A DNA stretch of 64,000 bases from a virus (Duplodnaviria; Caudoviricetes), in the IMG/VR virus record IMGVR_UViG_3300033076_001146, positions 5,284 to 69,283 of that record. The stretch is one strand, 5' to 3'. The notes under the pieces were generated by a model, which saw only the letters and a program-made list of their open reading frames with translations, ran no database searches and was not told where the DNA came from. Positions 2,805 to 59,796 of this stretch are shown in pieces (position 1 is the stretch's first letter; the number at the start of each line of letters is the position of its first letter). Position numbers and translations under genes: made by a program.

Positions 2805-4067
2805 TTAAGCATTAGCTGCGACTTGCGTGGCCAAGCCGGTCACGGCGCAACGTGCGATTTTCGCCATGCAGCGCGGTTCAGGCGTCCCGAAGTTGTAATG
2901 CGCTCCGAGCGCACCCGTCCAAGCGTCTGAACCGTAGCCCGCAACACCGGAACGCATCCGCAGCGTGTTGCCGTCGTGATCGTAAAGGCCAAACGGCTTC
3001 TCTTCGTACTTCTTGAGTTCCGAGCCAACCACGAGCCAGATGTCGGACTCGCCGCAATCCGGGTCTTTGTGAAACAACGTGTCGCCGTGGCCGAAGGCGT
3101 CAAACGAGCCGTCGAACTTCTTCGCATCGCCGTCGAAGCGCTTGTAGTTCTGGCCCAAGCGCGTCAACGCATCGTCTTGCGCCAGCGACAGAATCGCCAT
3201 GACCTTCTTTGCCTTGCCGACACCAGCGCGCGCTTCGAGCAGGCGCTTGGTGTAGCTAAACGTCGAAACCTGAATCGCGGCCCCGGCCAGGTCGGTCACG
3301 GGCGAGCGCAATTCGGGATAGGTCGAGCGGCTTTGCAGTTGGAACGTGCCTGTATCGTTGTTGACGATATGGGCCAAGCCGCGCGGCGACTTGTAGAGCG
3401 TCGAAGCCAACAGAATCCAGTCACCGTCCGTCGCGCCAGAAATGGCCGCGCCGATTGTGATGGTCTTGTTGGTCTTGGCCGTCGGCTGGATCGTGCCGCG
3501 ATAGGTCGCGAGCGTCGAGTCATACCAGTCGTAAGTTTCACCAACGCGCATGTGAACCGCGCCCTTGGTGACTTGCGGCGAGGTCGTCGGCGTGTGGTCA
3601 ATCGCGTTGTACAGCGTGACCGTTGTCGTCCCCGACTTGTACAGCGCACGGACGCCCGATCCGTCGTTAAACATTTGGATGTTGGCCTCTTTCATCAGCG
3701 CTTCGGTGCGCTTGGAAAGAATGCCGCCCATCCCTTTGATAAGGCTGGATTCGGACTCGGCATTGCGCAGAGCTTTGCCGGTCAATTCGAAGGCCATCGT
3801 CAAGTTCATCGGCGAGACGAACATATCGTCCAACGTCTCAGAACCCGGTTGTTTGAAACTGCCACCTTCCGCGATGGAACCCACACCAGTGGGCGGACGG
3901 AGGTAGGAAGGAATGCGGAAACCTTTGCCGTTGACAAACTGGCTTTCGGTGTCCCGCTCGAACATGTTGTATGTGGCCGGTTCTTGTTCGAACTGATCAC
4001 GCAAGGCATTGGCCGAAATCTGCTGCAACGCAGGCAGAATCGTGGCGATATTTACTTGAACGCCCAT
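2805..4067 (-). CDS. Major capsid protein
   Basis: 420 aa; follows scaffold and portal; size and composition fit an HK97-fold capsid. Confidence 0.75.
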   Translation of the reverse strand: MGVQVNIATILPALQQISANALRDQFEQEPATYNMFERDTESQFVNGKGFRIPSYLRPPTGVGSIAEGGSFKQPGSETLDDMFVSPMNLTMAFELTGKALRNAESESSLIKGMGGILSKRTEALMKEANIQMFNDGSGVRALYKSGTTTVTLYNAIDHTPTTSPQVTKGAVHMRVGETYDWYDSTLATYRGTIQPTAKTNKTITIGAAISGATDGDWILLASTLYKSPRGLAHIVNNDTGTFQLQSRSTYPELRSPVTDLAGAAIQVSTFSYTKRLLEARAGVGKAKKVMAILSLAQDDALTRLGQNYKRFDGDAKKFDGSFDAFGHGDTLFHKDPDCGESDIWLVVGSELKKYEEKPFGLYDHDGNTLRMRSGVAGYGSDAWTGALGAHYNFGTPEPRCMAKIARCAVTGLATQVAANA

Positions 4068-29781: not shown

Positions 29782-29907
29782 TTGCCGCGACCTCGCCAGG
29801 TTCAGCGGCAATGACGGCGGCGGGGCTGGGGGTGAGAACCTGACCCGCCGCCGAACGTAACCCGACATAAATCAAAAGTGCGCTCGGACGTTCGTTGATT
29901 TATGTCG
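29782..29907 (+). promoter_or_regulatory. Triple-hairpin leader upstream of integrase
   Basis: Stems 29782-29811, 29815-29853 (GAGA loop) and a 13-bp IR 29863-29875/29895-29907. Confidence 0.5.
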
Positions 29908-31134
29908 CTTTCGATTATGCCCAAACTTAAAGACGGCGCGCATCGCCAATCCCAATATCCCGGCATCTGCCGCCGCTACAGCGCCAAGCTGAATGACTGG
30001 CAATGGGGCTACCGGCTCAGGCTGGGCGACGGCTGGACTCACGTTCACCCCTGCACGACACTTGAGGAAGCCCGCGCGCTGGCGCACCTGATCCAGCAAG
30101 GACACGCCGCAACCGTGCTCGAACTCGCTGCGCCTGCCCAACCGCTCCTGGCCGCGCTTTTTCGCCGTTACCTCGACAGCCAGCAACAAGGCAAGCCGCG
30201 CGTAGACGCAAACCGAGCTTTGCGCCGCTTTGCTATGATCCTGACGAAAGACACCGCTCTTGCCCAAGCCGATGACTGGCTCGACCGGCTGGCACTCGCG
30301 GGCATCACAATTGAGCAAGTAAAAAAGGCGCGGTTGTCTGAATACGTTGATTTCCGCCGGCAGAAAGGCGCGGCCCCAGCTTCAATCAACCGCGAACTGA
30401 ATTTCATCGCTGCAGCACTGCACCGGGCCGGTGATTGGTTCGATATGCTTGAACAGTGGCGACCGCCCGCCATTCCGCGTGTGCCCGTCAGTCATAACGG
30501 AGCCAAACGGCTGATCAATGATGATGAATACCAGCGCCTGCTAGACTGGCTTTCTGCCGATACTCACCCCGGCGAACGAGGCCACCAAGCCAAAGGCCGC
30601 AAGCACGTCTACTGGATTTTGCGCGGCCTGATGCTGACTGGCGCTCGTGTCAGCGAGTTGTACAAGCTGCGCTGGGCCGATGTGGACCTCGCGTCTGATC
30701 CACCACGCTTGACCATCCACGGCACCAAAACAGCCAAGAAAAAGCCATCCGTCCGCGTGCTGATGATTACGTCCGACCTCCGCGAAGTGCTCGAAGCGCA
30801 ACGCCCTTACGCTGCCAAGCGCAAATATGTATTCACCGAAGGCGGCAACCATTCGCCCAAATACTACAAGATTATCCGCCGGGCCTGCGCCGCGCTCGGC
30901 ATCCCCTATGGCCGGTTCGTGGTGGACGGCCTCCAATTCCGCCACGCCAGGCACACGCTTGCCACGGAACTGTTACGCGCTGGTAGGCCAATCCACGCCG
31001 TCGGGCAGCGCCTCGGCCACGATCCGAAAACCATGCTGCGACACTATGCGGGGGTGAATGCGGCGGATGATGCGCGCGACATTGAAGCGTTGGAATTGAT
31101 TGAGGCGCGACGAGCCGGAAAAGCAGTACCTTAA
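29902..31134 (+). CDS. int: Tyrosine integrase
   Basis: TGARVSEL, HxxRH-like RHARH, LGH and catalytic Tyr (MLRHY). Confidence 0.92.
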   Translation: MSLSIMPKLKDGAHRQSQYPGICRRYSAKLNDWQWGYRLRLGDGWTHVHPCTTLEEARALAHLIQQGHAATVLELAAPAQPLLAALFRRYLDSQQQGKPRVDANRALRRFAMILTKDTALAQADDWLDRLALAGITIEQVKKARLSEYVDFRRQKGAAPASINRELNFIAAALHRAGDWFDMLEQWRPPAIPRVPVSHNGAKRLINDDEYQRLLDWLSADTHPGERGHQAKGRKHVYWILRGLMLTGARVSELYKLRWADVDLASDPPRLTIHGTKTAKKKPSVRVLMITSDLREVLEAQRPYAAKRKYVFTEGGNHSPKYYKIIRRACAALGIPYGRFVVDGLQFRHARHTLATELLRAGRPIHAVGQRLGHDPKTMLRHYAGVNAADDARDIEALELIEARRAGKAVP

Positions 31135-31472: not shown

Positions 31473-31497
31473 GCGGGTTCGATTCCCGCCCTCGGCA
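31473..31497 (+). other. attP core: 3' end of a tRNA-Leu-like gene
   Basis: GCGGG TTCGATT CCCGC (T arm) + CCTCGGC A (acceptor 3' strand and discriminator); no 5' half upstream. Confidence 0.8.
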
Positions 31498-31515
31498 TTA
31501 CCCAACAAACTTCAC

Positions 31516-36268: not shown

Positions 36269-36658
36269 ATGACATCAGAACAGTTAGACCTGATCCAATC
36301 CCACTACAAGCCGCCCTTTACCTACGATCCGCAAGGGCAAATGATTTTCGACAGTCTAAGCCGACTCGTGTTGGACGTGCGCGGCTGGGGCTGGATTCAG
36401 CATTTACACGACTCCGAGGCAATTCAAGACAGCTTTGGCAAATGGGTAGCAGAAGTGCTAACCCGCGAGATAAAGGCAATTTCAATCACACCTACTGCCC
36501 CGCCCTCGGCATCACCGGACGGCCGGCTTTCTTCTGGGCTTCCTTTATCTTCTGATCCTCATAAAACCGCGTCTGACGCAGCGGCGTGCCCATCAGGCCA
36601 TAGCCTGCCGTCTCAAGCGCCGTCATCGGCACCTTCTGGCGACCAAGCTGCATCGTAG
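36269..36658 (+). CDS. Hypothetical protein (3' end overlaps giant gene antisense)
   Basis: YKPPFTYDPQGQMIFD...LDVRGWG motif. Confidence 0.5.
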   Translation: MTSEQLDLIQSHYKPPFTYDPQGQMIFDSLSRLVLDVRGWGWIQHLHDSEAIQDSFGKWVAEVLTREIKAISITPTAPPSASPDGRLSSGLPLSSDPHKTASDAAACPSGHSLPSQAPSSAPSGDQAAS

Positions 36659-39600
36659 GCCGTTTGCCCTGTGCCAGTGCGGCGACCGTCTCGGCGGTCT
36701 TGGTGTACGGTGTCACGGCTTTGGCCGCACGATAGAGCGCATTGTTGCGTTTTTCCGGCGTCTTGGCGTTGTCGTAGTTCTCTTTCTGCGTCCACAGTTC
36801 TGCCATGAGTCCCACAGTCGGGCCACCGATGGCGTTCAGCGCCTTCTCTTTCGGCGTCTTGCCGAAGGGCGCATCCAGCAGCATCATCGAAGACGACAAA
36901 TCCTGCTCCAGCAAGGCCGGCGCACCAAAGTAGACGCCCTCGGCGATCTTGTTGGCGAGGTGTTTGTCTTCGGGCGGGAGTTTGTCTTCAAGGGTTTTGG
37001 CCAGCGTGCCCAGGATGATGATGCCGGGGATCGAGGACAGCGCCGAAATGCTGCGCACGCCACCCACGGCCACCTGTGACACGACCATCTTGGAAATGCG
37101 CGCCAGCTTGCCGGTTTCACTTCCCTGCGGCGCACGTTGGGCATCTGCCCAGATGCGTTCCAGGTTCTTCACCGTGTAGCCTTTGAATTGCAGCAACACG
37201 CGGGCGAGCGGTTCCCGGAACAGCGGCGGAGCCCCAAAGCGGCCATTGTCGAACTCGACCTTGGCGGCCCAATCGGCGGCCATCCGCGCCTTCTCTTGGC
37301 CAGTCAAGCCTAGCTTATCGGCCATCAGCTCCCCGGCCAGATGCCCGACGATGCGGTTGGAGTCCGACACTGTGCCGAACAGTGTCCAGGGGCCGCGCTT
37401 CTCTATCCCTTCGACCTGACCGCCGGATTCTTTCTCGGCAATCTCTTTCAAGCGGGCCCGGATTTCAGGACGGCGCGCATCGGCCATCACTTTGGCGAAT
37501 TCGCGCGTGGTCAGATGCGGCCACAACGTTTGGAAGGGCTGCAACCAGTTCACCGCCGCTGAACGCGGGTTATACGCCAGCACGCGGTAATAGTTGAACT
37601 TGGTCAGGAAGTTGGCGAGGCCTGACCACGGCTCATTGCCCCCACGCACGGCGTCAAGGTGGGCTTCGATGTAGTTGGCCAGTTGCGGCTTCCCTGCCAG
37701 GCGCAATTCCTGTTGATAGGGTTTGACCGTCTTGGCCAGATTGTCGAGCGTGGCGTTGCGCGCCTGCGGATTGCGGGCAAGTTCCACCTGTGCGTCTTTG
37801 AAGGCCTCGCTGATGGCCTTCCCTGCCGCGCCGCCCAGCTTTTCATAGGTGCCGATGTAATTGAGATTGCTGAGCGGCGAGCGCAGCGTGTCGCGCGCAT
37901 CAGCGTCGCGGGTCAGCTTGGCCTGCTCGCGTCCGCTGAAGGTCTGTGCGATTTGCTGCTGTATTTTGCGATACGCGATGCCGTCTTTCGCCTTGCGCGC
38001 CGCTTCAAGCTGCGCCTCGTAGCCTTCAAAGCGCGTAAACAGCGCGTCCGCGTCGAGGTCAATGCCCTGCCTCTCGGCTGCGCTGACGTAGCGGTCCAGC
38101 GTCTTGACCACTTTGTCTAAGTAACGGTCGTGTGCGGCGTCATCCGGCAAGCGACGACGTTCGGCCCAGGCGGACAGTTCGCGATAGGCTTGGGCGATGT
38201 TGAGGCCGGATGAGCGGGTGTCGGGCGTGGATTTCTGCCCCATCACCTCGCGCATTTCTTCTAGCTGTTTCTTTGTTCCTATCTCTTTGCCTGGTTGCGT
38301 GATGTTCTTGGTACGCATTGGCATCAATGCCGCAACTGGCTGTCCGTTTTTCCGAAAGACGAGCACCCCGGTGTTATCTTTACCCGCTTGGGCAATCTCG
38401 TCTGGCGCGTGCGCGTCCATAATCGCACGTAAATAAGCCGCGTCTGCCGCTGTTACTTGATTCTTGGCATCTGTCAAAAAGGCGTAGGGCGTTTTCTGGT
38501 CGCCCATATACATCACGCCTTCAATCTTTAACGGACGCTTGGCCTGTTTATTCCAATCGGCGAAATGCGTCTCTAAATCCTCGTCTGATTTGTATACTTT
38601 GGAATCTTCGTTCTTTTTTAGCATTGCGGGCGGCAACTTTTTCGCACCTTCCGCTCTAATCACGAGATGTCCATCTGTGACGAATTTTTTACCAGTCGCA
38701 ATGTTGCCATTTGTGGCCACATCTGGCTTAACGCTTTCGAATGGCACAATTGCTTGCCGCACAGACGATTCGCCTGCATCTTCCCAAGCAAAATCGCGTG
38801 ACAACGGTGTCTGACGCGGCGCTGTCAGTCCTTTTAGCGGTGCACGTCCTGTCACCTTCGGACGATCAAGCCGGGATTCAAGCGCGCGAGCTTCCTGCGG
38901 TCCTCGCAAAGTAAACCGCCCATCTCCCGGCACCGGGATTGTGACATCGCGCCCTTCGGCCAGCATGGGCTTGGCCTCTTTGATCTTGCCGCGCAAATAC
39001 TGCTCTTGTGTCGGCGTTAATCCGGTTTTGCCAATCTTTTCTTTTTCGGCGGCGTTCTCGACGCGAATCTTTTCGCTTAACTCAGGCTTCAGCATTTGTA
39101 CTTGGCCCGACTCTGCGCGGGCCAATCTCTCTTGCGCCTGTTTCAGTTCTTTCGCGGCTTCATTTGATGTTGGGCTAAATTGACGTGCTTGCTCTGCCAG
39201 TCCCACTTGACGCCGTTTCGCTTCAGTATAGTCGCCTTCCTCAAAGAGCGATTGCCGCAATTCCGCATCCGTGGCACGCGGTTTCGCCACTTCCCCGCGC
39301 GGCGGAGCTTGCTCGGCGACGGGTTGAACCGGGGCATATACATCCCCTTGTCGTCTGTAGCCTTGTGGTAAGCTGTCTTTTAATCTGTAGGTGTCTACCG
39401 CCTCGGCATTGACTGGTTGGCCCTTTCGTGCGGCTTTTAAGACTTCGGCATCATTTGCAGGCCCTAGACCCGCCGCCTTGTATTGCGCAGGCGTCATTAG
39501 ATGTGGCGCGACTTGCTCGGCGACGGGCTGCGGCTGGGCTGGTGCGGCTCCTGCTGGCTTCTCAATCACCACCATCCGCGCATTCACGCCCGTATTCACC

Positions 39601-42600
39601 GGCAAGGACGGATCAAGGAATGAGCCAGGTTCCAGCTTTTCGGATGTCCCGCCGACGCTTTCCAGCCATTCGCGAAACTCGGTGGCCTTCTTATCGCTGC
39701 CAAAGAACGAGCCTTCGCCCATAATCGCGACAAGTCGCCCTTCGGGTTTGAGCAAGTCGTAAGCATGGCGAACGTGTTCGATGTCACGCCGATTGCTAAA
39801 CGGCGGATTCATCACGATGCGGTCATATTGGCCCTGCGTTTCCAGAAAGTCTTGCCCGACAAGATTATGGCCCTTTGCCTCTAACAACTCGCGCCGGTCG
39901 CTCGCCATTTCCACGACGTCAGGATCAACGCCCGCTTCGCGCAACCGGTCGGCAATGTGGCCCATCCCGGCGGACGGCTCCAGCACGGCCATTCCCTCTT
40001 TCACGTCGGCGACTTCAATCATTCGATCAGCCACGCTGGCGGGCGTCGGGAAGAAATCCAACCCGTCATTCTTGCGGCCAATCATCGCCCGCTCCATCTC
40101 TTTGATCTTGTCGGGCGCTTTGGCTTGTTCGCGCAGCCCGATGAATTCACGCAAGGCGGCGCGCAGTTCGGCGGGCGTCTCAATGCCCATCCCGGCCAAT
40201 CGCTTCCGCTTGTCATAGGCAGACTCGAACGTCCACGGCACATCAATTTCGCGCCGTTTGAGCGTCTTCAGCTTGGCGACCAGTTCGTCGCCGATGTCAT
40301 TGCCCAACGTGATGCGCTTGTCGTTGTCGCCTGCCCAGATGCCACGCTCGCGCGCCGCTGACGGACTCAGAATGATGAGGTTTTGCCCGCGCTTGAACGG
40401 CAACACGATGGCTTGGCCCTTAAAGCCACTGCGCGCAATCGCAGCTTCAGCGGTCGCCTTGCTGCCAAAAACAGCGCGTTCACCATCCTTGCGGCTAAAC
40501 GTCGAAACCTTATGCACATTCTCTTTGGCAAACTTCAGATAGGCGTCGGTCACATCATCGGCTTCTTTGAGGATTGCCGCACCGAGCTTCTTTGTGCCTT
40601 CCTGCTCGATCAACTGGCGGCCCAGCTTCGCCAAATCCGAACGGTACGCCGTATAGGTCGGGAACGTCGCGTGATCAGCGGCTTCTTTGGTTGGCGGCTC
40701 GCCGAAGTGTTTTTCCTGTTCGGCGTAGGTCGGATACTTCGAACGCAGGTAATCGCCCTGGCCCGAATGGACGAAACTTTGCAACATCTCGACCTGCACC
40801 TTTTGGCGCACGCGATCCAGGAATTTGGCCTTGCCGGCTTCGATGGCGTCGGCAATGTTGCGCATGGTCTTCGCCATTGCCTTGCTCGCATTGGCGGCAG
40901 ATTCCGCGCTTGCCGCAAAGCGCGCGCGCCGGTCGGTGTTGGCTTTGCGTTCAACCGACAAGGATTCGTCTGCACGCGCGTCCAGCGCGTCGGCCATCTC
41001 GCGTAACCGCTCCACAGCCGTCTGGCTCTTGTCGTCTTGCATCGCATCGCGACGCGCCTGCACTGTCTCTTTGGCCTTATCCACCTTGCCGCCCAGATAT
41101 TCCAAGAATGCCTCGGCGTTCGCGCGCGTCTTGAATTGGAAGCCAGGAACAGCGCCAGCCGCACGATAGGATGAATACCAGCCGCCCAGCCGTTTCGCCG
41201 TCGCGTTCCATTGGTTGTACACGTCGCGCTCGACACGTTCGGCGGCTTTGACCACGAACAGCGGCTCGCCGGTCTTGGTGTGTTTGGTTTCGATTACGTC
41301 GCCGGTCATTGACTGGCTGGCTGCGCGCACTTCGGTGCGTTGCTGGTCAGCACGCGCACGGCGTTCATCGCGTGATTTGGTCGCGGCCAGTTCGTCGTAT
41401 TGCGCCCGCTGTTCCGGCGTCAGCGACATCCGCACCTGTTGAAAGGTGACGCCCTCGCCAATCTCGGCAGCCTTGGCCCGGATCACGCGGTTAAAGTCTT
41501 CGAGCGTCTTCGGGTCTTCCATCCCCTCCAGCGCGGCTTTCTTCTTTTGTTCGCGTTCGGCGGCAGCTTGTTTGACCTTCTCGGCGTATTGGCTCAGTGA
41601 TTCGTCGGTGTGCTTCTCGACAACCGCGCGAATGCCCTTCGTGTAAGAGTCGTCACCCATACCATAGTTGAAGCTTTGGTTCAGGGTGTAATCGCTCTGC
41701 ATTTCACGGAACGCCGCGTCAACAACTTCGGCTTTTGTCTCGTTCTTGTAGCGCCAGCGCAGATCGGGAAACTTCTCAAAAATGCCATCCTTGGTCAGCT
41801 TGGACAATTCCGCCTTGATGGCTTCCTTGTTGGTGGCTAGCGCTTCAAAGGACGCCTTGATTTCAGCGGCAGTGGCTTGGCCCTTCTCAATGCGGTCGAA
41901 GAGGTCGGCGTGTGCTTCGACATTGGTGCGCGCTCTCTCGACAGATTGCGCGGAGGCTTCCGCGACAGGCTTCGACTTTGCCTCATACTCAGCATCGCGC
42001 CGCGCTTCTTCTGCCCATTCCTGCGGCGTCAGATCGCGCACAACGCGATATTTGCCCGGCTCGCTCGGATGTTCTTGCGCTCGCCACTGCGGCCCCATCT
42101 TCTTGGCGCGAATCTCAGCGGAGCGCTTGCTGATCATGTCACCGCCGCGCGTTCGATCAACAATGACTTTCTCTTTCCTTGCTGGCGTTTGCGCAGGGTT
42201 CACACGGGGCGCACTGGCAACGCTTCCCTCCCCTTTTGGCTGAGCAGGCTGGGTGGCTTTGGACGGTGAGGATTGTGAGGATTCTCCTTGCAGTTTGATT
42301 TCAGTTTGAACACCGTTCTTACTGCTAAACAGCAAGCGATCAAGGGTAACTTCTTGGCCTTCTAAATCAGTCAAACCAGCATATTTCTTGCCCGTACCTG
42401 GCTTGACATAAGCGATTGTCGCGTGTGGTTTGTAATCAGGATGCGTGTCCGTGTGCGGCATTGCATCCGCAATCTTCTTGTTTAAGCGCTGCAAATCAGG
42501 CGAGTCAACATCCACTTTCACCACATCGGCATCTTCATTTTCAAACAGTGAGGTCTTACCGAGACGCACGCGTACTGGCGGTTCACCTGCTAGAATCTGT

Positions 42601-45600
42601 TGAATCTTGGCGGGGTCTTCATCGTGCAATCCATACTTTACGGTGATGTGTGACTCTGTTTCGCGTCCGTCTTCGGTCAAATCGGCATCGGGAATTTTCT
42701 CGCCCAAAGCTCGCATTTTTTCTGCTACCGCATCAGGCAAGTTGACTTGCGTGCTGGAGAATTTGCCCTGCTTGCCTTTTACGATGCTGACGCCCGTTTT
42801 ATTTTCAGGATTGGCTACAACAAAACGCCCGTCGGCTGTTTCGGCAATTATTGGCTTGCCTGAAATGGCCGGATTATCATGACGTACTTTTTGCTGTCCT
42901 GGCTGCGACACTTCCTCCGCCCGCACCTCGCCCGCCCTGCGCAGCGTGTTGCCCTCTTCGACAATGCGGCCCTGCTGTTTCAGTGCTTCGAGTGCGGGAT
43001 TGATGCGGCCACGGGTCAGCCCGCTTTCACGGATGAGGCTGTCGCGGGTGATGGTGCCGGTGTCGGGAATGAGTCCGTGGATGAAATCGGCATCGGGGTT
43101 GGATTTATTACTCGCGGCATTATCCTGAACCCTTTGCTGCTCGCGACTGACGCCTTTGGCAGTATCTGTTCGAGGATTGCCTGACTGGTCTGCTCCTGAT
43201 TGCGTCCGGCGAACATCCGGCGCAACGCGGTTCCCTGTCGAGCGTGCATCCGGTTGCACGCTGCCTGCACTTTGTTCTGGTCTTTCGGTATCCGACGCTT
43301 GAATGCTCTCATTGATCGCCTTTGCCCTTTCGATGTCCTGCGTATTTTGAATGGTCTGCTGATACCGCCGCCTGTCTTCGGCTCCCAATCGGGAAGCATT
43401 GCGGCGCATCCACGCATCCCACGCCCATTGCGGCACCTGTGTCAAAGATACCTCATCGGCATTGACTTTCATCATGCGCGCAAAGGTATTTTTGAAGGCT
43501 TGGCGTGTTTCGCCTGCGCTCGCGTCGGCATCCAGCCCCAATGCCCCTTTGACATTTGGCGACTCATAAAACGAAGTGATCCCCTTCTCGCCATCGGGCA
43601 CGGTGCTTCTGAATACCTGCTGCGCAAAACGGCCAAACGGGCCTTTCCCTTCGGTGCCGGTGGCGCGCGCCTCTTCGACCACACGCCCCTGGCGCACCAG
43701 ATTGCGTTGCTCGCGCGGGAAGACTGCAGACTTGTCGGACGGGCCAGCCGTGCGCAACGGACGGCGCGGGGCTGTTGGCGCGGGCGGACGGCGACGGAAC
43801 GGCAAGACGTCGGCGGATTGCGGTTGCGGTTCTGGCGCAGGCTTTGCGCCATATTCCCCAACTTCCGGCACGCGGTAATAATCCCGCACTTCCCCGCCTT
43901 CATATTCGCTGAACTGGCGGCGCGGCATCCGTTCGACATTCGACGGTCGCACGTTCGGGCGCATCGGCTGTGCTGGTGGCACACCACGACGAACCGCCGC
44001 TAAGGGTTGCTGCGGGATTTCTTCGACGGGCGGGGTTTGGGTTTCGGCGGCGGCGGAAGTTTCTTGCCCAAGAGGTTGCCTTTCAATGACGGGTTGACGT
44101 GGTTGCTGTGGCGGACGTTGGCCGTGTGGCGGTCGCGCCGCTCTTTGCCGGTCGGCAATTTCAGCCTGAATACCCTGCGCTTCGGTGCGTGTGATGCCCA
44201 GCCGGTCGCGGATTTCTGTCAATTGCGGCAGGCGCCCACGCTGCACGAATTCCTGAATGATCGCATCGGCATCCGTGGCGCGCGTGCTGATGTTTGCCTC
44301 AAAGCCAGTTTCCGGCGGCGCGGAGCGCGGTTCAAAAACCGGCGCATTGTCGGCGCTCGTCGGCATCTGCTGCGGGCTGGTGACGGGACGGGCAACCGGT
44401 TGCTGCATCCGGCGCTCGCTGGCCTGCTCAATCTCGCGCTTGGCTTTGGCACTGGCCGCGCTCGCGTTGATCTGCTTCGGATCGTATTCAATCAGATGCT
44501 CGACATCGCCCACCTTAACGACCGATTGCCGATAACCTGGCGTTGGGTCGTTGTTCCATTCGCTCTGATCAAGCACGACAAACGGCGCTTGCTTGCCTGT
44601 GCGTCCGGTCGGACTGGCGGGCTGTCCGTCAGTGGCGGGAGCTTCCGTGCGTGCGGCGCGTAACCCAGCAATGCGCGAAGTCGGCGCGACTGGCACAGTC
44701 GCGGGCTGTGTTGCATCCAAATTCGGCGAAATTTCTGGCGCGGCGATTTTGGATGACGGCGGGGCTTGCGCGCGCCGGGCGGCCCGGTCGGCCAATCCCT
44801 GTTGCGCGGCGTCGCTAATCCCAAACGCAGCACCGACGGCGGCGTCTTCTGCCAGCTTGTTCGGATCAATCTTGCCGGTCAGTAACGGCTGCGTCACCAA
44901 CGATTGCCCGACGTTGCCGGCTGCGCCAACACCCATTTCACCAGCGGTGCGCGCCAAGGTGCGCGGAATCGGGCGCATGGCCTGTGTGGCATTGTTGAGC
45001 ATCGGACGCGCGGCCCGCGTCAGCGCCATCGGCACGGCAGTGCTCGCCATATTGACGGCAGTGTCCAACGGTCGCTCAATGTCGCCCATTGCAGCCTGTG
45101 TGCCCAGCGCGGCGGGCAATCCGCCAACTGCGCCCAATGCCACGGCGGGCAAAGCATCGCCCACGGCACGGGTCACATTTCCGGCTGTCGTTTGCCGGGT
45201 GGCTGCGTCCGCCGCTTCCTGTGCGGCAACCTGCTGCAACTGATCGTAATTCAGCGCGTTCGGGTCGGTCAGATATTTGCGCGCGGCTTCTTCATAGGCT
45301 TTGCGCGCATTCGCTTTGACGGCTTCGGCATTGGCGTAAGAAAACCGCCCCAACTGCTGTTGGATGGCTTCCCGCGCGGCAGGATTCGACGTTGTGCCAG
45401 GTTCTTGCAGGTAATTTGCGACGTTGCCCGCGACATCCTGAATCCCTGTCACTAATCCGCCCGCCAACTGCGCGCCGGTCGCCGTCAACGGCGTCACGTC
45501 GCCCCGCACCAACCCTTGCCCGATGGTTTCAACACGCTGGCCGGTTTGCGCCAGTCCGGTCATCAGGCGTCCGGGGACGCGTTTGGCTTCTTCGTAAATC

Positions 45601-46403
45601 TGGCTCGTAACAGGTTTTTGCGCGAATTCTTCCGCCGCCTTGCGCTTGGCTTGGAGTTCTGGCGTTTCCGGCAACACTTGCTCGCGCTGCGCCATTCCCT
45701 GCTGCAACGTCTCAAAAGGCGACGTGCGCAGGCCTTGAATCTGCTTCGTCAGCGGACGGCGAACGTCCACACTCGGCATTGCGCTGATGCGCGGTCCCAT
45801 TGGTCTGGCAGGTTGTTGCGGCGCTTGCACAGGCCGCTTGGACGGCTGCGGCAGCATTTCGTTGGGAATGTCTGGCCCATACGCGCCCGGGTTTTGCTGG
45901 CTGGGGCGTGGCGTGTTGGATTTCCAGGCTTCGGCGCGCGGTTGCGCCTGTTGCTTCCATTGTTCAAACCGTCCGGCTGGCTGCGCAGTCTCGGCGGGAC
46001 CACCCACCACGTCGGCATAGTGCTGGGTTTCCGGGATATTGGGCACACCGCCAGCCTTCCGCACGCGACCGGGCCCAGCATTGTACGCCGCGGCGGCCAA
46101 GCGCCGGTCCCCGCCAAACTGGTCAAGCATCTGCTTGCTGTAGCGCACCCCACCTACGATGTTCTGATCCACGTCGTATGGGTCAACGCCTAAATCGCGC
46201 GCCGTGCCCGGCATCAACTGCATGGCACCGATCGCGCCCGCCTTGGACTTCTTGTGCCCAAGGATGACGTCCGGGTCGCCGCCAGTTTCCTGCTTGTGCT
46301 GGCGCGCGGCGTAATCTTCTGGCACGCCTTGATTGCGCGCCTCTTCACGGACACGCCGGTCAGCATACCCTGTCACCCAATTGCGGAAGCGTCCTTGCGG
46401 CAT
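36492..46403 (-). CDS. Giant polyvalent ejection-type virion protein: SLT, 2H phosphoesterase (Acb1-like), N6-adenine methyltransferase, LPD38-like C-terminus
   Basis: QETGG/GAMQLMP/AYNAGPG (about 46010-46350); HITVKY and PHATIAY (42310-42770); FFPTP/LEPSAG/NPPF (39558-40060). Confidence 0.85.
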   Translation of the reverse strand: MPQGRFRNWVTGYADRRVREEARNQGVPEDYAARQHKQETGGDPDVILGHKKSKAGAIGAMQLMPGTARDLGVDPYDVDQNIVGGVRYSKQMLDQFGGDRRLAAAAYNAGPGRVRKAGGVPNIPETQHYADVVGGPAETAQPAGRFEQWKQQAQPRAEAWKSNTPRPSQQNPGAYGPDIPNEMLPQPSKRPVQAPQQPARPMGPRISAMPSVDVRRPLTKQIQGLRTSPFETLQQGMAQREQVLPETPELQAKRKAAEEFAQKPVTSQIYEEAKRVPGRLMTGLAQTGQRVETIGQGLVRGDVTPLTATGAQLAGGLVTGIQDVAGNVANYLQEPGTTSNPAAREAIQQQLGRFSYANAEAVKANARKAYEEAARKYLTDPNALNYDQLQQVAAQEAADAATRQTTAGNVTRAVGDALPAVALGAVGGLPAALGTQAAMGDIERPLDTAVNMASTAVPMALTRAARPMLNNATQAMRPIPRTLARTAGEMGVGAAGNVGQSLVTQPLLTGKIDPNKLAEDAAVGAAFGISDAAQQGLADRAARRAQAPPSSKIAAPEISPNLDATQPATVPVAPTSRIAGLRAARTEAPATDGQPASPTGRTGKQAPFVVLDQSEWNNDPTPGYRQSVVKVGDVEHLIEYDPKQINASAASAKAKREIEQASERRMQQPVARPVTSPQQMPTSADNAPVFEPRSAPPETGFEANISTRATDADAIIQEFVQRGRLPQLTEIRDRLGITRTEAQGIQAEIADRQRAARPPHGQRPPQQPRQPVIERQPLGQETSAAAETQTPPVEEIPQQPLAAVRRGVPPAQPMRPNVRPSNVERMPRRQFSEYEGGEVRDYYRVPEVGEYGAKPAPEPQPQSADVLPFRRRPPAPTAPRRPLRTAGPSDKSAVFPREQRNLVRQGRVVEEARATGTEGKGPFGRFAQQVFRSTVPDGEKGITSFYESPNVKGALGLDADASAGETRQAFKNTFARMMKVNADEVSLTQVPQWAWDAWMRRNASRLGAEDRRRYQQTIQNTQDIERAKAINESIQASDTERPEQSAGSVQPDARSTGNRVAPDVRRTQSGADQSGNPRTDTAKGVSREQQRVQDNAASNKSNPDADFIHGLIPDTGTITRDSLIRESGLTRGRINPALEALKQQGRIVEEGNTLRRAGEVRAEEVSQPGQQKVRHDNPAISGKPIIAETADGRFVVANPENKTGVSIVKGKQGKFSSTQVNLPDAVAEKMRALGEKIPDADLTEDGRETESHITVKYGLHDEDPAKIQQILAGEPPVRVRLGKTSLFENEDADVVKVDVDSPDLQRLNKKIADAMPHTDTHPDYKPHATIAYVKPGTGKKYAGLTDLEGQEVTLDRLLFSSKNGVQTEIKLQGESSQSSPSKATQPAQPKGEGSVASAPRVNPAQTPARKEKVIVDRTRGGDMISKRSAEIRAKKMGPQWRAQEHPSEPGKYRVVRDLTPQEWAEEARRDAEYEAKSKPVAEASAQSVERARTNVEAHADLFDRIEKGQATAAEIKASFEALATNKEAIKAELSKLTKDGIFEKFPDLRWRYKNETKAEVVDAAFREMQSDYTLNQSFNYGMGDDSYTKGIRAVVEKHTDESLSQYAEKVKQAAAEREQKKKAALEGMEDPKTLEDFNRVIRAKAAEIGEGVTFQQVRMSLTPEQRAQYDELAATKSRDERRARADQQRTEVRAASQSMTGDVIETKHTKTGEPLFVVKAAERVERDVYNQWNATAKRLGGWYSSYRAAGAVPGFQFKTRANAEAFLEYLGGKVDKAKETVQARRDAMQDDKSQTAVERLREMADALDARADESLSVERKANTDRRARFAASAESAANASKAMAKTMRNIADAIEAGKAKFLDRVRQKVQVEMLQSFVHSGQGDYLRSKYPTYAEQEKHFGEPPTKEAADHATFPTYTAYRSDLAKLGRQLIEQEGTKKLGAAILKEADDVTDAYLKFAKENVHKVSTFSRKDGERAVFGSKATAEAAIARSGFKGQAIVLPFKRGQNLIILSPSAARERGIWAGDNDKRITLGNDIGDELVAKLKTLKRREIDVPWTFESAYDKRKRLAGMGIETPAELRAALREFIGLREQAKAPDKIKEMERAMIGRKNDGLDFFPTPASVADRMIEVADVKEGMAVLEPSAGMGHIADRLREAGVDPDVVEMASDRRELLEAKGHNLVGQDFLETQGQYDRIVMNPPFSNRRDIEHVRHAYDLLKPEGRLVAIMGEGSFFGSDKKATEFREWLESVGGTSEKLEPGSFLDPSLPVNTGVNARMVVIEKPAGAAPAQPQPVAEQVAPHLMTPAQYKAAGLGPANDAEVLKAARKGQPVNAEAVDTYRLKDSLPQGYRRQGDVYAPVQPVAEQAPPRGEVAKPRATDAELRQSLFEEGDYTEAKRRQVGLAEQARQFSPTSNEAAKELKQAQERLARAESGQVQMLKPELSEKIRVENAAEKEKIGKTGLTPTQEQYLRGKIKEAKPMLAEGRDVTIPVPGDGRFTLRGPQEARALESRLDRPKVTGRAPLKGLTAPRQTPLSRDFAWEDAGESSVRQAIVPFESVKPDVATNGNIATGKKFVTDGHLVIRAEGAKKLPPAMLKKNEDSKVYKSDEDLETHFADWNKQAKRPLKIEGVMYMGDQKTPYAFLTDAKNQVTAADAAYLRAIMDAHAPDEIAQAGKDNTGVLVFRKNGQPVAALMPMRTKNITQPGKEIGTKKQLEEMREVMGQKSTPDTRSSGLNIAQAYRELSAWAERRRLPDDAAHDRYLDKVVKTLDRYVSAAERQGIDLDADALFTRFEGYEAQLEAARKAKDGIAYRKIQQQIAQTFSGREQAKLTRDADARDTLRSPLSNLNYIGTYEKLGGAAGKAISEAFKDAQVELARNPQARNATLDNLAKTVKPYQQELRLAGKPQLANYIEAHLDAVRGGNEPWSGLANFLTKFNYYRVLAYNPRSAAVNWLQPFQTLWPHLTTREFAKVMADARRPEIRARLKEIAEKESGGQVEGIEKRGPWTLFGTVSDSNRIVGHLAGELMADKLGLTGQEKARMAADWAAKVEFDNGRFGAPPLFREPLARVLLQFKGYTVKNLERIWADAQRAPQGSETGKLARISKMVVSQVAVGGVRSISALSSIPGIIILGTLAKTLEDKLPPEDKHLANKIAEGVYFGAPALLEQDLSSSMMLLDAPFGKTPKEKALNAIGGPTVGLMAELWTQKENYDNAKTPEKRNNALYRAAKAVTPYTKTAETVAALAQGKRPTMQLGRQKVPMTALETAGYGLMGTPLRQTRFYEDQKIKEAQKKAGRPVMPRAGQ

Positions 46404-47844: not shown

Positions 47845-47931
47845 CTAGTCGCAGCCGAAGAATAAATACACGAGTCCCAGGAGGTTGAGCGCAATCAGAA
47901 GCAGGGGCGGCAATGGTGATAGGCAGCGCAT
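47845..47931 (-). CDS. 28-aa hydrophobic peptide
   Basis: MRCLSPLPPLLLIALNLLGLVYLFFGCD; TGATG overlap with fibre stop. Confidence 0.35.
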   Translation of the reverse strand: MRCLSPLPPLLLIALNLLGLVYLFFGCD

Positions 47932-49898
47932 CAATTTGCTATCCGCAAGCACCTGAACCCCGTGCCGCCACTATCTGCCGCGCCTCGCGTTACGCGCTTC
48001 AGACTCCCTGCCGTTACGTCCCATAATCGCAGCCGGGTATCGTCTGCCGTGCTACTAGGGTCTATCTCTAGTACCACCGTATCGCCTACGGTCAACTTAT
48101 GACTGCCGACACTGCCAGCATGATAAAACACACTCGCACCATCCCCTGAGTCACGCCAGATCCCAACGTCATTGGCCGTTCCGCCGCCGTTGCTGAATAC
48201 CACCCCAGTAATTGCGCTAACTGCGCCCGTTCCGGTTAGAGCGATTGATCCCAGCGATAGACCTGCGTCACTAATCGAAAGCCGCTCGACGCCAGCCGTG
48301 CGAAAGCTGAGCGATGAACCGCTGGACGTGTTGAAAACGATATTGCTGGACGAATCGCGGCCAATGAATACGTCATTTGTTGCCCCGCCATTGTCCGCGA
48401 AAATCAATCCGGCTGGCGTGGTGCTTGAGCCATCCCAGGTGTTTGAAATCGTGGCCGAGGACGAGAAGGTTTGCAGGCTCGAAAACGTCTGCGCCAAATT
48501 CGTGCCTGCAATTGTGTAGCTCGCGTCTTGCGGCGTAAGCGTGCGCGTTGTGCCAGTCGTGAGGCCGTCAACCTCAAAGGCCAGTAATTTTGTAGCGTCT
48601 GAGGAACCTTTGACCAGCGCAGTTGAATCCACGAACGGCTGAGACGAACCGGAAGGCGTGCGCCAACTGCCGCCGCTGTAGAAATAGAAATTATTATTGG
48701 TCGTGTCTACGTGAATCGGCGCGCGCCCTGTGTACGTGGTTGGTGTTCCGCTGGGCGCACCCGCTGAAGTAGACACGTAAACAAACCCATCAGTGGCATT
48801 TGTGGCAAGTGCCCCGCTGCCGGGAACGATATTCTTCAAGGCCGTTATCGTCAGCGCGTCGGCGTACGTATTGGCCGTGCTTGAACTACTGCCCGGCGTG
48901 GCAGTCTGAATCACTAGGCTCCCGCTGCCGCCTGTGCCTGTGCCGTTACCGGGTTTTAGTGTCAGGTTCACCCCAGCGTTATTCAATCCCGCCGTATAGC
49001 TCGCCCCGCGAATGGTGGAAGCGGCGGGCGCGGTGCCATCACCAGCCCCGACTAAAATGTTACCAGCCACAGCCAGCTTCTCGCGGATAGAGTTGGAGTC
49101 GTCCGCGTAACCTACCTGCAAGCCTGCGTTGCCGAATGAGCCACGATTTGTGCCCTGTGTGTAAAAGCTGACAAGATTAGTCGTGGTACTCCCGGTGATT
49201 CCCGGCCCGCTGCTAATTGCGCCAATCTGGTCGGATTGCAGCGTAAGCGTATCTGAGCCGTCCACGGAACTGGCGAGTTGCAGCGAAGCCCCTAGACTCG
49301 CATAAGGCGCAGGGTCGCCGCCCGCCAGTTTCAAAATTGCCAATTCACTGCTAGGTGTCGCCACACTGCCCACGAAAAAACGCATTTGCGTTGTAACATG
49401 GTCATTGGTGGGCACACTGGTCGTGTAGATGTCAATTTTCCCACTCGGCCAAAACTCGTCGCCATCGTAGCCTTGCCATTCAATTGCGCCCAACGAGCGC
49501 CCGGTCAGTACTACGGTCGGGCTGCCGCTTGTGCCATAGGCTTTGCGAAAGCGAAAATTTGCCGCGCTGGTGTCGCTGCCGTAATAGGTGGTTGCGGTTG
49601 TACGGGCGTCAATGCGTGCCAAAGGCGAGTCCGCAAAAGCGGTAGGACTTGAACGGTACGGGATAGTACCATTCGTGCTATTGATAGAAGCTCCCCCACT
49701 ACCCCCGCTACTTGTCCAAGTGCCAGAGGCGCAGACCCAGATCACACCAGTCGTCGTCAACTGCACTTCTTGCGCTTTACACGTGCCAGATGGGTCCGTG
49801 GCCGAGCCTTTAAGTTTATTGGCTGTCACGTTCACCGCCTGCCCGTAGGTAGGCAGGCCAAGGACCAGCAAAAGCACTAAAGTCTTGAGAGATTTCAT
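47931..49898 (-). CDS. Tail-fibre-like protein with N-terminal signal peptide
   Basis: G/S/T-rich beta repeats; MKSLKTLVLLLVLGLPTYG-Q. Confidence 0.7.
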   Translation of the reverse strand: MKSLKTLVLLLVLGLPTYGQAVNVTANKLKGSATDPSGTCKAQEVQLTTTGVIWVCASGTWTSSGGSGGASINSTNGTIPYRSSPTAFADSPLARIDARTTATTYYGSDTSAANFRFRKAYGTSGSPTVVLTGRSLGAIEWQGYDGDEFWPSGKIDIYTTSVPTNDHVTTQMRFFVGSVATPSSELAILKLAGGDPAPYASLGASLQLASSVDGSDTLTLQSDQIGAISSGPGITGSTTTNLVSFYTQGTNRGSFGNAGLQVGYADDSNSIREKLAVAGNILVGAGDGTAPAASTIRGASYTAGLNNAGVNLTLKPGNGTGTGGSGSLVIQTATPGSSSSTANTYADALTITALKNIVPGSGALATNATDGFVYVSTSAGAPSGTPTTYTGRAPIHVDTTNNNFYFYSGGSWRTPSGSSQPFVDSTALVKGSSDATKLLAFEVDGLTTGTTRTLTPQDASYTIAGTNLAQTFSSLQTFSSSATISNTWDGSSTTPAGLIFADNGGATNDVFIGRDSSSNIVFNTSSGSSLSFRTAGVERLSISDAGLSLGSIALTGTGAVSAITGVVFSNGGGTANDVGIWRDSGDGASVFYHAGSVGSHKLTVGDTVVLEIDPSSTADDTRLRLWDVTAGSLKRVTRGAADSGGTGFRCLRIAN

Positions 49899-59134: not shown

Positions 59135-59521
59135 TTATTTTTTGTAGGTTTGCAAAACGCCGCGCTTTTTACGGTCAAGCTCGCGCTGCTTGTTCCACTG
59201 CAACGCCTCTTCAATCTTGGTAATACTGACGGAGTTTTCACGACAGGCAAATTCGCCTGCATTCGCCTTGCGAATGAAGTCTTGCAGGATTAACAGCAAG
59301 GTCTGATTGCCAATGCCATTGACGCCAATTTCTTTGGGATGGCCTTCTTGTAACTGTATCTGGCAAACCACCCAGGAAGGCTTACCATCGTGGCCATTCG
59401 TTCGCACTTCGTAATAATGCGGCACGCCGCCCGCACCGTCTGGTCCTGCGTAGACCTCAAGGAATTCTTCCGTGAAGCCGTCAATCATTGGGTGATCTAC
59501 TTTGCGTAACTCTTCAGACAT
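59135..59521 (-). CDS. tad1: Tad1-family anti-Thoeris immune-signal sponge
   Basis: GAGGVPHYY, IQLQEG..KE, GEFACRENSVSITKIEEALQW..R..DR..RGV; AAGGA RBS before ATG 59521. Confidence 0.8.
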   Translation of the reverse strand: MSEELRKVDHPMIDGFTEEFLEVYAGPDGAGGVPHYYEVRTNGHDGKPSWVVCQIQLQEGHPKEIGVNGIGNQTLLLILQDFIRKANAGEFACRENSVSITKIEEALQWNKQRELDRKKRGVLQTYKK

Positions 59522-59607
59522 TTTGTCTATCCTTTCTTGTCGCGTTTTGCGACGTAACCGACCGTTAATCGCACGAGGGCAATCGTGCCGCCCGCAAAAG
59601 CACCAAC

Positions 59608-59796
59608 TCATTGCCGCTTCTCGCCGTTCATTTGCTTGGCGCGTTTATCGGCATCTTGCCAATCGTTAAAGGTCAATGCCGGGCCTGCATCCGCCGCCGT
59701 CAGCAGCCAGCCTGTGCGCGTGTCTACGATGACATTGACGCCAGGGGCGCGGGTTTCGGCCTTGTAACGCGGTTGCTCGTCCGTGCTCACGTTCAT
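59608..59796 (-). CDS. Hypothetical protein
   Basis: 62 aa, ATGA overlaps. Confidence 0.45.
   Translation of the reverse strand: MNVSTDEQPRYKAETRAPGVNVIVDTRTGWLLTAADAGPALTFNDWQDADKRAKQMNGEKRQ

Follow-up and report, generated by a model that had tools for sequence, protein, structure and literature searches.

Polyvalent proteins, which unite several unrelated effector domains in one polypeptide, were defined by Iyer et al. (2017, PMC5512222), who list 2H, lysozyme/SLT, adenine-methylase and LPD38 domains for the phage type. From gene context these authors argued that polyvalent proteins are packaged and injected, and they proposed that the 2H domains are RNases or degrade 2′-5′ oligoadenylate or other nucleotides of nucleotide-activated defence. 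P1 DarB is described in the same study as protecting DNA in cis after injection. Internal virion proteins (IVPs) host lysozyme domains as well as domains destined for the cytoplasm, and gp60 of the Pseudomonas phage H66 is, within the F116 group, the homologue of T7 internal virion protein D (hereafter IVP-D), gp16 (Hardies et al. 2016, PMC4819975). According to its GenBank record, H66 gp60 (3787 aa, 'PLxRFG domain-containing protein') was 'verified by mass spectrometry as part of the virion'. Here we describe P0001, a protein of 3303 amino acids (aa) encoded by an uncultured, temperate phage (Duplodnaviria; Caudoviricetes) of ~69 kb and 56% GC. The window, that is the whole stretch of 64,000 nucleotides (nt) that was analysed, comprises bases 5284-69283 of the 69,283-bp IMG/VR record IMGVR_UViG_3300033076_001146, which CheckV rates as complete. 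A megablast search against cultured phages gave no close DNA relatives. We consider it likely that P0001 is the IVP-D of this phage, of T7 gp16 type, enlarged by insertion of cargo into a polyvalent protein.

P0001 is an ordinary member of the described class, and the concept of ejection and anti-defence is already in print. As Iyer et al. (2017) hold both the packaging and the signal degradation by 2H domains, the original prediction for this stretch, a toolkit pre-loaded into the virion that breaches peptidoglycan and counters defence, corresponds to the published model. Like other polyvalent proteins, P0001 joins an SLT, a 2H and a methyltransferase domain, and its relatives bear the LPD37, LPD38, ART-PolyVal and GGDEF domains of the class. 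In contrast to the class, P0001 has no LPD domain and no processing peptidase recognisable with Pfam, and its tail is of the PLxRFG type instead of the LPD38 type. The DarB methylase of P1 has a SNF2 helicase partner, which the methyltransferase of P0001 lacks.

Among the ejection proteins, T7 gp16 shares with P0001 an N-terminal SLT domain and a C-terminal G-x-x-G-x-x-x-x-QFKxFTIKxL motif, but it has only 1318 aa and no cytoplasmic enzyme cargo. The virion RNA polymerase of N4, gp50, exceeds 3000 aa and follows the same design principle, with an IVP-D-type C-terminal domain and an enzyme acting in the cytoplasm (Hardies et al. 2016; Iyer et al. 2017). The cargo of gp50 is an RNA polymerase, whereas P0001 carries a phosphoesterase and a methyltransferase, and no zincin-like peptidase was detected in it. 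H66 gp60 (Hollowayvirus; split F116 homologue) contains the central module with an NPPF methyltransferase, at 51% identity over P0001 aa 1447-2312, and a homologous tail. In H66 the gp60 gene closes the structural block, and the P0001 gene likewise comes last on its strand, ahead of a convergent cluster. However, neither an SLT nor a 2H domain could be detected in gp60, which carries LPD23 and LPD3 instead, and outside the central module and the tail the two proteins are not similar. The neighbours of the two genes are likewise unrelated, hence there is no synteny with H66.

The two ends of P0001 and their relation to T7 gp16

The original prediction, made from the letters of the window alone, had described a 3303-aa protein with an N-terminal lytic transglycosylase, a 2H phosphoesterase, an adenine methyltransferase module and an LPD38-like tail, placed after fibre and ejection genes and containing AT-richer patches. 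This description was only partly confirmed, because the LPD38 tail and the gene neighbours did not hold. The protein itself is encoded in one open reading frame (ORF), as stated, which is preceded by an AAGG ribosome-binding site 9 nt ahead of the ATG and starts 4 nt past the stop of a 473-codon gene, an arrangement of coupled genes.

The N-terminal domain scored far above the Pfam cutoff for SLT enzymes (Table 1), and in a phmmer alignment its E39 (KQETGG) pairs with the catalytic E478 of E. coli SLT70. The motifs GAMQLMPGT (GAxGxMQxMPxT) and AYNAGPG are present as well. The predicted lytic transglycosylase is therefore borne out, with its catalytic glutamate kept. In addition, BLAST connected this domain to the SLT domain of T7 gp16 (E 5e-5).

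The C-terminal module carries the motif QFKGYTVKN (aa 3072-3080) and a hydrophobic segment (aa 3107-3139), and its predicted structure is all-alpha, with a predicted local distance difference test score (pLDDT) of 82. An exhaustive search placed aa ~2820-3300 in a family of their own, which occupies the C-terminal end of 195 representative large proteins. The hidden Markov model (HMM) of this family matches H66 gp60 aa 3245-3683 with 88 bits, a region that falls inside the PLxRFG 'tail-700' family NF032893 of NCBIfam, which scores 796 bits on H66 gp60. Moreover, a stringent jackhmmer search started from the NF032893-positive tail of the relative P0061 reached P0001 at aa 2865-2977 (E 1e-11) and 3007-3293 (E 1e-42). 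Within BFVD, this predicted fold is seen again in C-terminal pieces of viral giants of the polyvalent, methylase and helicase kinds, and also in one protein named 'Internal virion protein D'.

Two C-terminal HMMs also matched T7 gp16 itself, at aa 1099-1167 with 13.7-14.0 bits (single-target E ~1e-6), whereas none of 2000 shuffles of gp16 reached 13 bits. The T7 motif G-x-x-G-K-x-V-x-QFKSFTIKSL corresponds to LARVLLQFKGYTVKNL in P0001; in both proteins a Gly-rich hydrophobic stretch follows the QFK motif, which lies ~220-245 aa from the C-terminus. The C-terminal homology, the shared QFK motif and the SLT match together argue that P0001 is an enlarged ejection protein of the gp16 type.

A number of results speak against this assignment. 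Applied directly to P0001, NF032893 gave no match at E<=0.1 (curated cutoff 100 bits); on the relative P0249 it scored 20.4 bits. Foldseek searches of the PDB with the C-terminal model returned nothing at E<0.4, and the T7 core protein 9jyy_I appeared at E 1.2 with a template modelling score of 0.10. The VIA wide search gave generic helical hairpins only, with no solved match, and a profile search of the PDB sequences with this module gave no match. Beyond the SLT domain, the connection with T7 gp16 consists of a single short motif stretch of ~14 bits. Pfam found no peptidase domain in P0001 that could release the cargo. Finally, family searches with the ten upstream proteins yielded just one unnamed PHROG family, for a protein of 158 aa, and a sub-threshold DUF948 match, and comparison with cultured phages and the PDB gave almost no matches, so that no upstream ejection gene was identified. 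As the NF032893 cutoff was missed, we regard the tail as a divergent tail-700 relative and not as a curated member, and because the T7 match is short and weak, the link to gp16 stands at the level of the motif.

The tail had originally been taken as LPD38-like. This was rejected: LPD38 (PF18857) gave no Pfam match at E<=0.1, an HMM built from 61 LPD38-bearing relatives missed P0001 (E<=10) and all its C-terminal relatives, and the profile-profile probability from hhalign was just 0.1-0.3%.

The 2H phosphoesterase and the methyltransferase

Aligned with 39 stand-alone homologues, the 2H domain shows no variation in either of its HxT motifs (H1252-I-T and H1327-A-T). An AlphaFold (AF2) model made from the homologue alignment reached a mean pLDDT of 92, and its structure matches were 2H enzymes throughout. 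Together with the PF13563 score above cutoff, these data bear out the 2H phosphoesterase that had been predicted. The fold and the two HxT motifs are shared with Acb1 (T4 gp57B, FBB1 Acb1) and with PDE-9 of BCSR5. Acb1 is, however, a free early protein of ~150 aa, whereas the domain of P0001 sits inside a giant protein of virion type, and its core is larger than that of Acb1, LigT-sized and structurally closer to LigT-type enzymes.

The substrate of this domain can be read in two ways, which we hold to be about equally likely. Cyclic-oligonucleotide signals, as for Acb1, have a chance just short of even, and so do 2′,3′-cyclic-phosphate or 2′-5′ RNA ends or a role as RNase. The reading as an enzyme against CBASS, the antiphage signalling based on cyclic oligonucleotides, is unproven. 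Two observations count against it: the domain scores 19.6 bits with the Acb1 family PF23474 and does not reach the gathering threshold of 27, and in the structure ranking, which is not decisive, LigT-type enzymes stand above Acb1.

It is quite possible, although not the better bet, that the domain is a LigT-like RNA enzyme and no anti-CBASS nuclease, which would leave the ejection-protein model otherwise intact. Such an enzyme could heal the 2′,3′-cyclic-phosphate ends that anticodon nucleases of the host or toxin RNases leave behind; it could also break 2′-5′ linkages or degrade host RNA as an RNase. Against this, the best sequence match of the domain in the PDB is 9q2g (E 7e-5, 21-22% identity), the phosphodiesterase PDE-9 of Burkholderia phage BCSR5, which was deposited as Acb1 and degrades 3′3′-cyclic GMP-AMP (3′3′-cGAMP; bioRxiv 10.1101/2025.08.21.671373). 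Lid regions, which close over the substrate, are predicted poorly even for known enzymes (same preprint). Many close homologues also pass the Acb1 threshold, among them P0017 (~55% identity over the domain, 35.7 bits); a different 2H domain, in P0004, scores 128.6 bits. Moreover, Iyer et al. (2017) did not observe this 2H type beside an RNA ligase, and with Pfam none is detectable in P0001.

The 2H subtype of P0001 (55-65% identity) was found in 232 giants and in 318 shorter proteins. Its partners in the giants vary widely and include SNF2 helicases, N12 class adenine-specific DNA methylases and Zeta toxins, while the shorter proteins comprise, among others, stand-alone forms of 160-190 aa and carriers of Pfam portal families. 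One subtype of 2H phosphoesterase is thus a frequent cargo, both of giants and of portal-family proteins.

The 2H domain is followed by a central module (aa ~1490-2290), which in a whole-length search was retrieved at 50-70% identity from at least 599 proteins of 1.8-5.8 thousand aa that share nothing else. The variable domains of these giants include LPD37, LPD38, ART-PolyVal, GGDEF, Acb1 and SLT, among others. The last part of the module is a methyltransferase with the motif order of the gamma type, in which motif I precedes motif IV, (D/N)PP(F/Y/W), present here as NPPF. By its sequence motifs the assignment of aa ~2096-2290 as an amino-methyltransferase is secure, and PHROG families named 'DNA methyltransferase' match it (phrog_6263, 3e-31; phrog_799, 2e-19). 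All matches to generic Pfam methyltransferases were below threshold. The adenine methyltransferase of the original prediction is borne out as regards the type of enzyme, its substrate being less secure.

For this putative DNA methylase, cis-protection of the incoming DNA by analogy with P1 DarB would be the most economical reading. Evidence to the contrary is that the solved relatives are weak (an uncharacterised Ta1320-type protein was best with E 0.003, M.TaqI reached E 0.22), that no target-recognition domain could be detected in the methyltransferase, and that some relatives of the central module carry the JGI label 'predicted RNA methylase'.

The closest central-module relatives that carry a name (P0004, P0008, P0061, P0076) come from assemblies of the Betaproteobacteria Sideroxyarcus, Rhodocyclales, Pseudomethylobacillus and Methylotenera. 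This origin hints at the host range of the phage lineage.

Mosaic composition and proposed role

AT-richer patches had been noticed in the gene, and the GC content at third codon positions (GC3) bears this out. Two blocks are low, aa 1001-1440 with 0.54 (the 2H domain itself 0.48) and aa 2281-2720 with 0.53, whereas elsewhere GC3 is 0.70, with a range of 0.67-0.76. The contrast has a z of 9.0, and a 440-codon block as low did not occur in 1000 codon shuffles. The steps at aa ~1000, 1440, 2280 and 2720 match the borders of the modules.

Such sharp steps might also mark misjoined pieces, the giant ORF then being a metagenomic chimera of the assembly or several genes read through, and none of the 508 retrieved proteins has the full architecture of P0001. 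We nevertheless regard an artefact as very improbable. The frame stays open over 9.9 kb in a genome of 56% GC, 2-5.8 thousand aa is the usual length for giants of this family, and the product of a neighbouring gene is present in the Atlas letter for letter. The junction of the 2H domain and the central module recurs in the independent relatives P0017, P0103, P0066 and P0168. In addition, both ends of P0001 occur together in P0249, which lacks the methylase module but has the chassis (SLT/N-terminal region, aa 847-1019 and tail). The variable partners and the GC3 mosaic fit an exchange of cargo cassettes within a constant ejection-protein frame. The constant parts would be the gp16-type ends, namely the SLT domain and the PLxRFG/tail-700 core, with enzymes swapped in between, and the swaps would leave compositional scars, here two blocks with a GC3 lower by ~0.17.

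A 35-nt direct repeat at 39301-39335 and 39505-39539 is 77% identical, with an exact core of 16 nt and a spacing of 204 nt, and flanks a segment of 68 aa. The peptide QPVAEQ, specified by this repeat at aa 2292 and again at aa 2360, stands directly past the methyltransferase, where the central module gives way to the low-GC3 block; the repeat may have been left by recombination at the junction of modules. Punctuating peptides at the module borders of P0001 were not found, QPVAEQ being the sole repeat.

For the packaging, ejection, compartments, substrates and timing of P0001 we infer the following model. The SLT domain at the N-terminus and the all-alpha PLxRFG/tail-700 module at the C-terminus, with its QFKxFTIK motif and hydrophobic segment, would form the chassis. 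By analogy with T7 gp16, few copies would reside in the capsid core and would be threaded out through the tail at infection. In the periplasm, the SLT domain would next cleave the peptidoglycan, and a conduit across the inner membrane would be built with the help of the C-terminal module. Between the chassis parts lies the presumed cargo: the 2H domain, the conserved module of ~800 aa that ends in the NPPF methyltransferase, and at least two unassigned modules. These enzyme modules probably enter the host together with the DNA, and they would reach the cytoplasm in the manner of the RNA polymerase contained in N4 gp50. In the cytoplasm, modification of the incoming DNA in cis, as by P1 DarB, would be the most likely role of the methyltransferase, and the 2H domain would hydrolyse a defence-related nucleotide or RNA end. 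The virion evidence concerns the homologue H66 gp60 and is the mass spectrometry given in its record. The pre-loaded toolkit that had been proposed is partly supported.

P0001 could also be packaged with its enzymes acting in the producing cell or in the capsid and not in the next host, which we judge improbable. The methyltransferase would then mark progeny DNA at packaging, the 2H domain would quench late-induced defence signals in the cytoplasm, and after ejection the SLT domain and the C-terminal chassis alone would matter. The gene appears to lie among structural genes; its product would then probably be synthesised late and might be plentiful in the cytoplasm at the stage at which many CBASS systems are triggered by late phage proteins. 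The number of IVP-D copies per virion is low (~3 in T7, according to a note in the record), and a chain of 3303 aa must unfold for the tail channel and then refold, both of which favour action in the producing cell. On the other hand, N4 gp50, an IVP-D homologue of ~3500 aa, delivers an active enzyme (Hardies et al. 2016), and P1 DarB acts in cis after injection (Iyer et al. 2017). Fusions of effectors to virion proteins across hundreds of lineages would moreover be hard to explain without delivery.

Within the model of delivery into the next host, a 2H domain tethered at the site of DNA entry could, with few molecules, abolish cyclic-oligonucleotide alarms (CBASS, type III CRISPR or Thoeris-like) before the phage is expressed, although we consider this doubtful. 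If true, pre-loaded signal degradation would be widespread, given the ~230 giants with the 2H subtype of P0001. It was predicted by Iyer et al. (2017), and we found no demonstration of it in the literature. Metagenomes contain many proteins of this class, which has hardly been studied at the bench, and P0001 represents one further dissected example. First-round protection by a virion-delivered 2H domain or methylase, if shown in a cultivable F116/H66-like Pseudomonas phage or in a phage with this 2H subtype, would confirm a prediction that is eight years old; the uncultured source phage is unsuited as a system for this demonstration.

Further features and neighbouring genes

Table 1. Coordinates of the P0001 gene, of its modules and of an upstream gene, in positions of the window
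Feature	Residues (aa)	Position	Strand	Remarks
Whole ORF, P0001	3303 in total	36492..46403	-	single uninterrupted frame; likely polyvalent ejection protein of IVP-D (T7 gp16) type
SLT lytic transglycosylase	19-119	46047..46349	-	PF01464, 57.4 bits (cutoff 21.3)
Ala/Gly/Gln-rich N-terminal region	~140-620	44544..45986	-	common to chassis relative P0249
Conserved module without assignment	~838-1041	43281..43892	-	31-35% identity in P0247, P0248, P0249
2H phosphoesterase	~1213-1374	42282..42767	-	PF13563, 45.4 bits (cutoff 27)
Conserved central-module part without assignment	~1490-2095	40119..41936	-	always joined to methyltransferase
S-adenosylmethionine-dependent methyltransferase	~2096-2290	39534..40118	-	FFPTP 2117, motif I LEPSAGMG 2141, motif IV NPPF 2199
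Low-GC3 module without assignment	~2428-2721	38241..39122	-	weak relatives in P0242, P0282, P0350 only
All-alpha C-terminal module	~2865-3293	36525..37811	-	divergent PLxRFG/'tail-700' (IVP-D core) domain
158-aa protein		59135-59611	-	phrog_2428, E 2e-25, function unknown

The Ala/Gly/Gln-rich region contains a moderately hydrophobic segment at aa 413-439. For the modules at aa 838-1041 and 2428-2721, the relatives hold no annotation that could be transferred. A BLAST alignment without significance (E 2.2) pairs a segment at aa 918-948 (~43560-43652), EGKGPFGRFAQQVF...DGEKG...FYE, with the PLxRFG motif region of H66 gp60 (aa 3104-3134). The segment belongs to the N-terminal third of P0001 and there to the aa 838-1041 module that is common to the chassis relatives. 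PLSNLN at aa 2843, just before the tail module, is a second candidate for the PLxRFG motif.

Large terminase, major head protein and a DnaB-type helicase are all encoded in the window, the terminase and major head genes elsewhere on the strand of the P0001 gene. Upstream of this gene lies a run of large uncharacterised proteins on the same strand. Their proposed identity as fibre and ejection proteins was not borne out, as the ten upstream proteins have almost no family matches. The proteins of 1972 and 655 aa found almost nothing in cultured phages and no convincing match in the PDB. In the Atlas, the 1972-aa protein gave weak leads (<0.9) to tail fibres or beta-helices, and the 473-aa protein nothing but a lead of 0.76 to P22 Inj_translocase. 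The 655-aa protein (47931-49898, minus strand) has at aa 572-627 a weak match to ubiquitin repeats (polyubiquitin) with 34.6 bits summed and no single stretch passing. Either this putative tail protein contains a beta-grasp domain of ubiquitin-like type, or the match is noise.

On the minus strand, the P0001 gene is the final one ahead of a convergent cluster on the plus strand. An exact 14-nt direct repeat, CCCGCCCTCGGCAT, occurs at 31485-31498 and 36499-36512 and brackets this 5-kb accessory cluster; two copies were found in none of 100 shuffles. The second copy encodes the final residues of P0001, MPRAG. As this copy lies inside the end of the gene, the accessory cluster may be an insertion at the 3′ end of the P0001 gene. 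Alternatively, the repeats may be cores resembling attachment (att) sites beside a candidate integrase ORF at 29902-31134.

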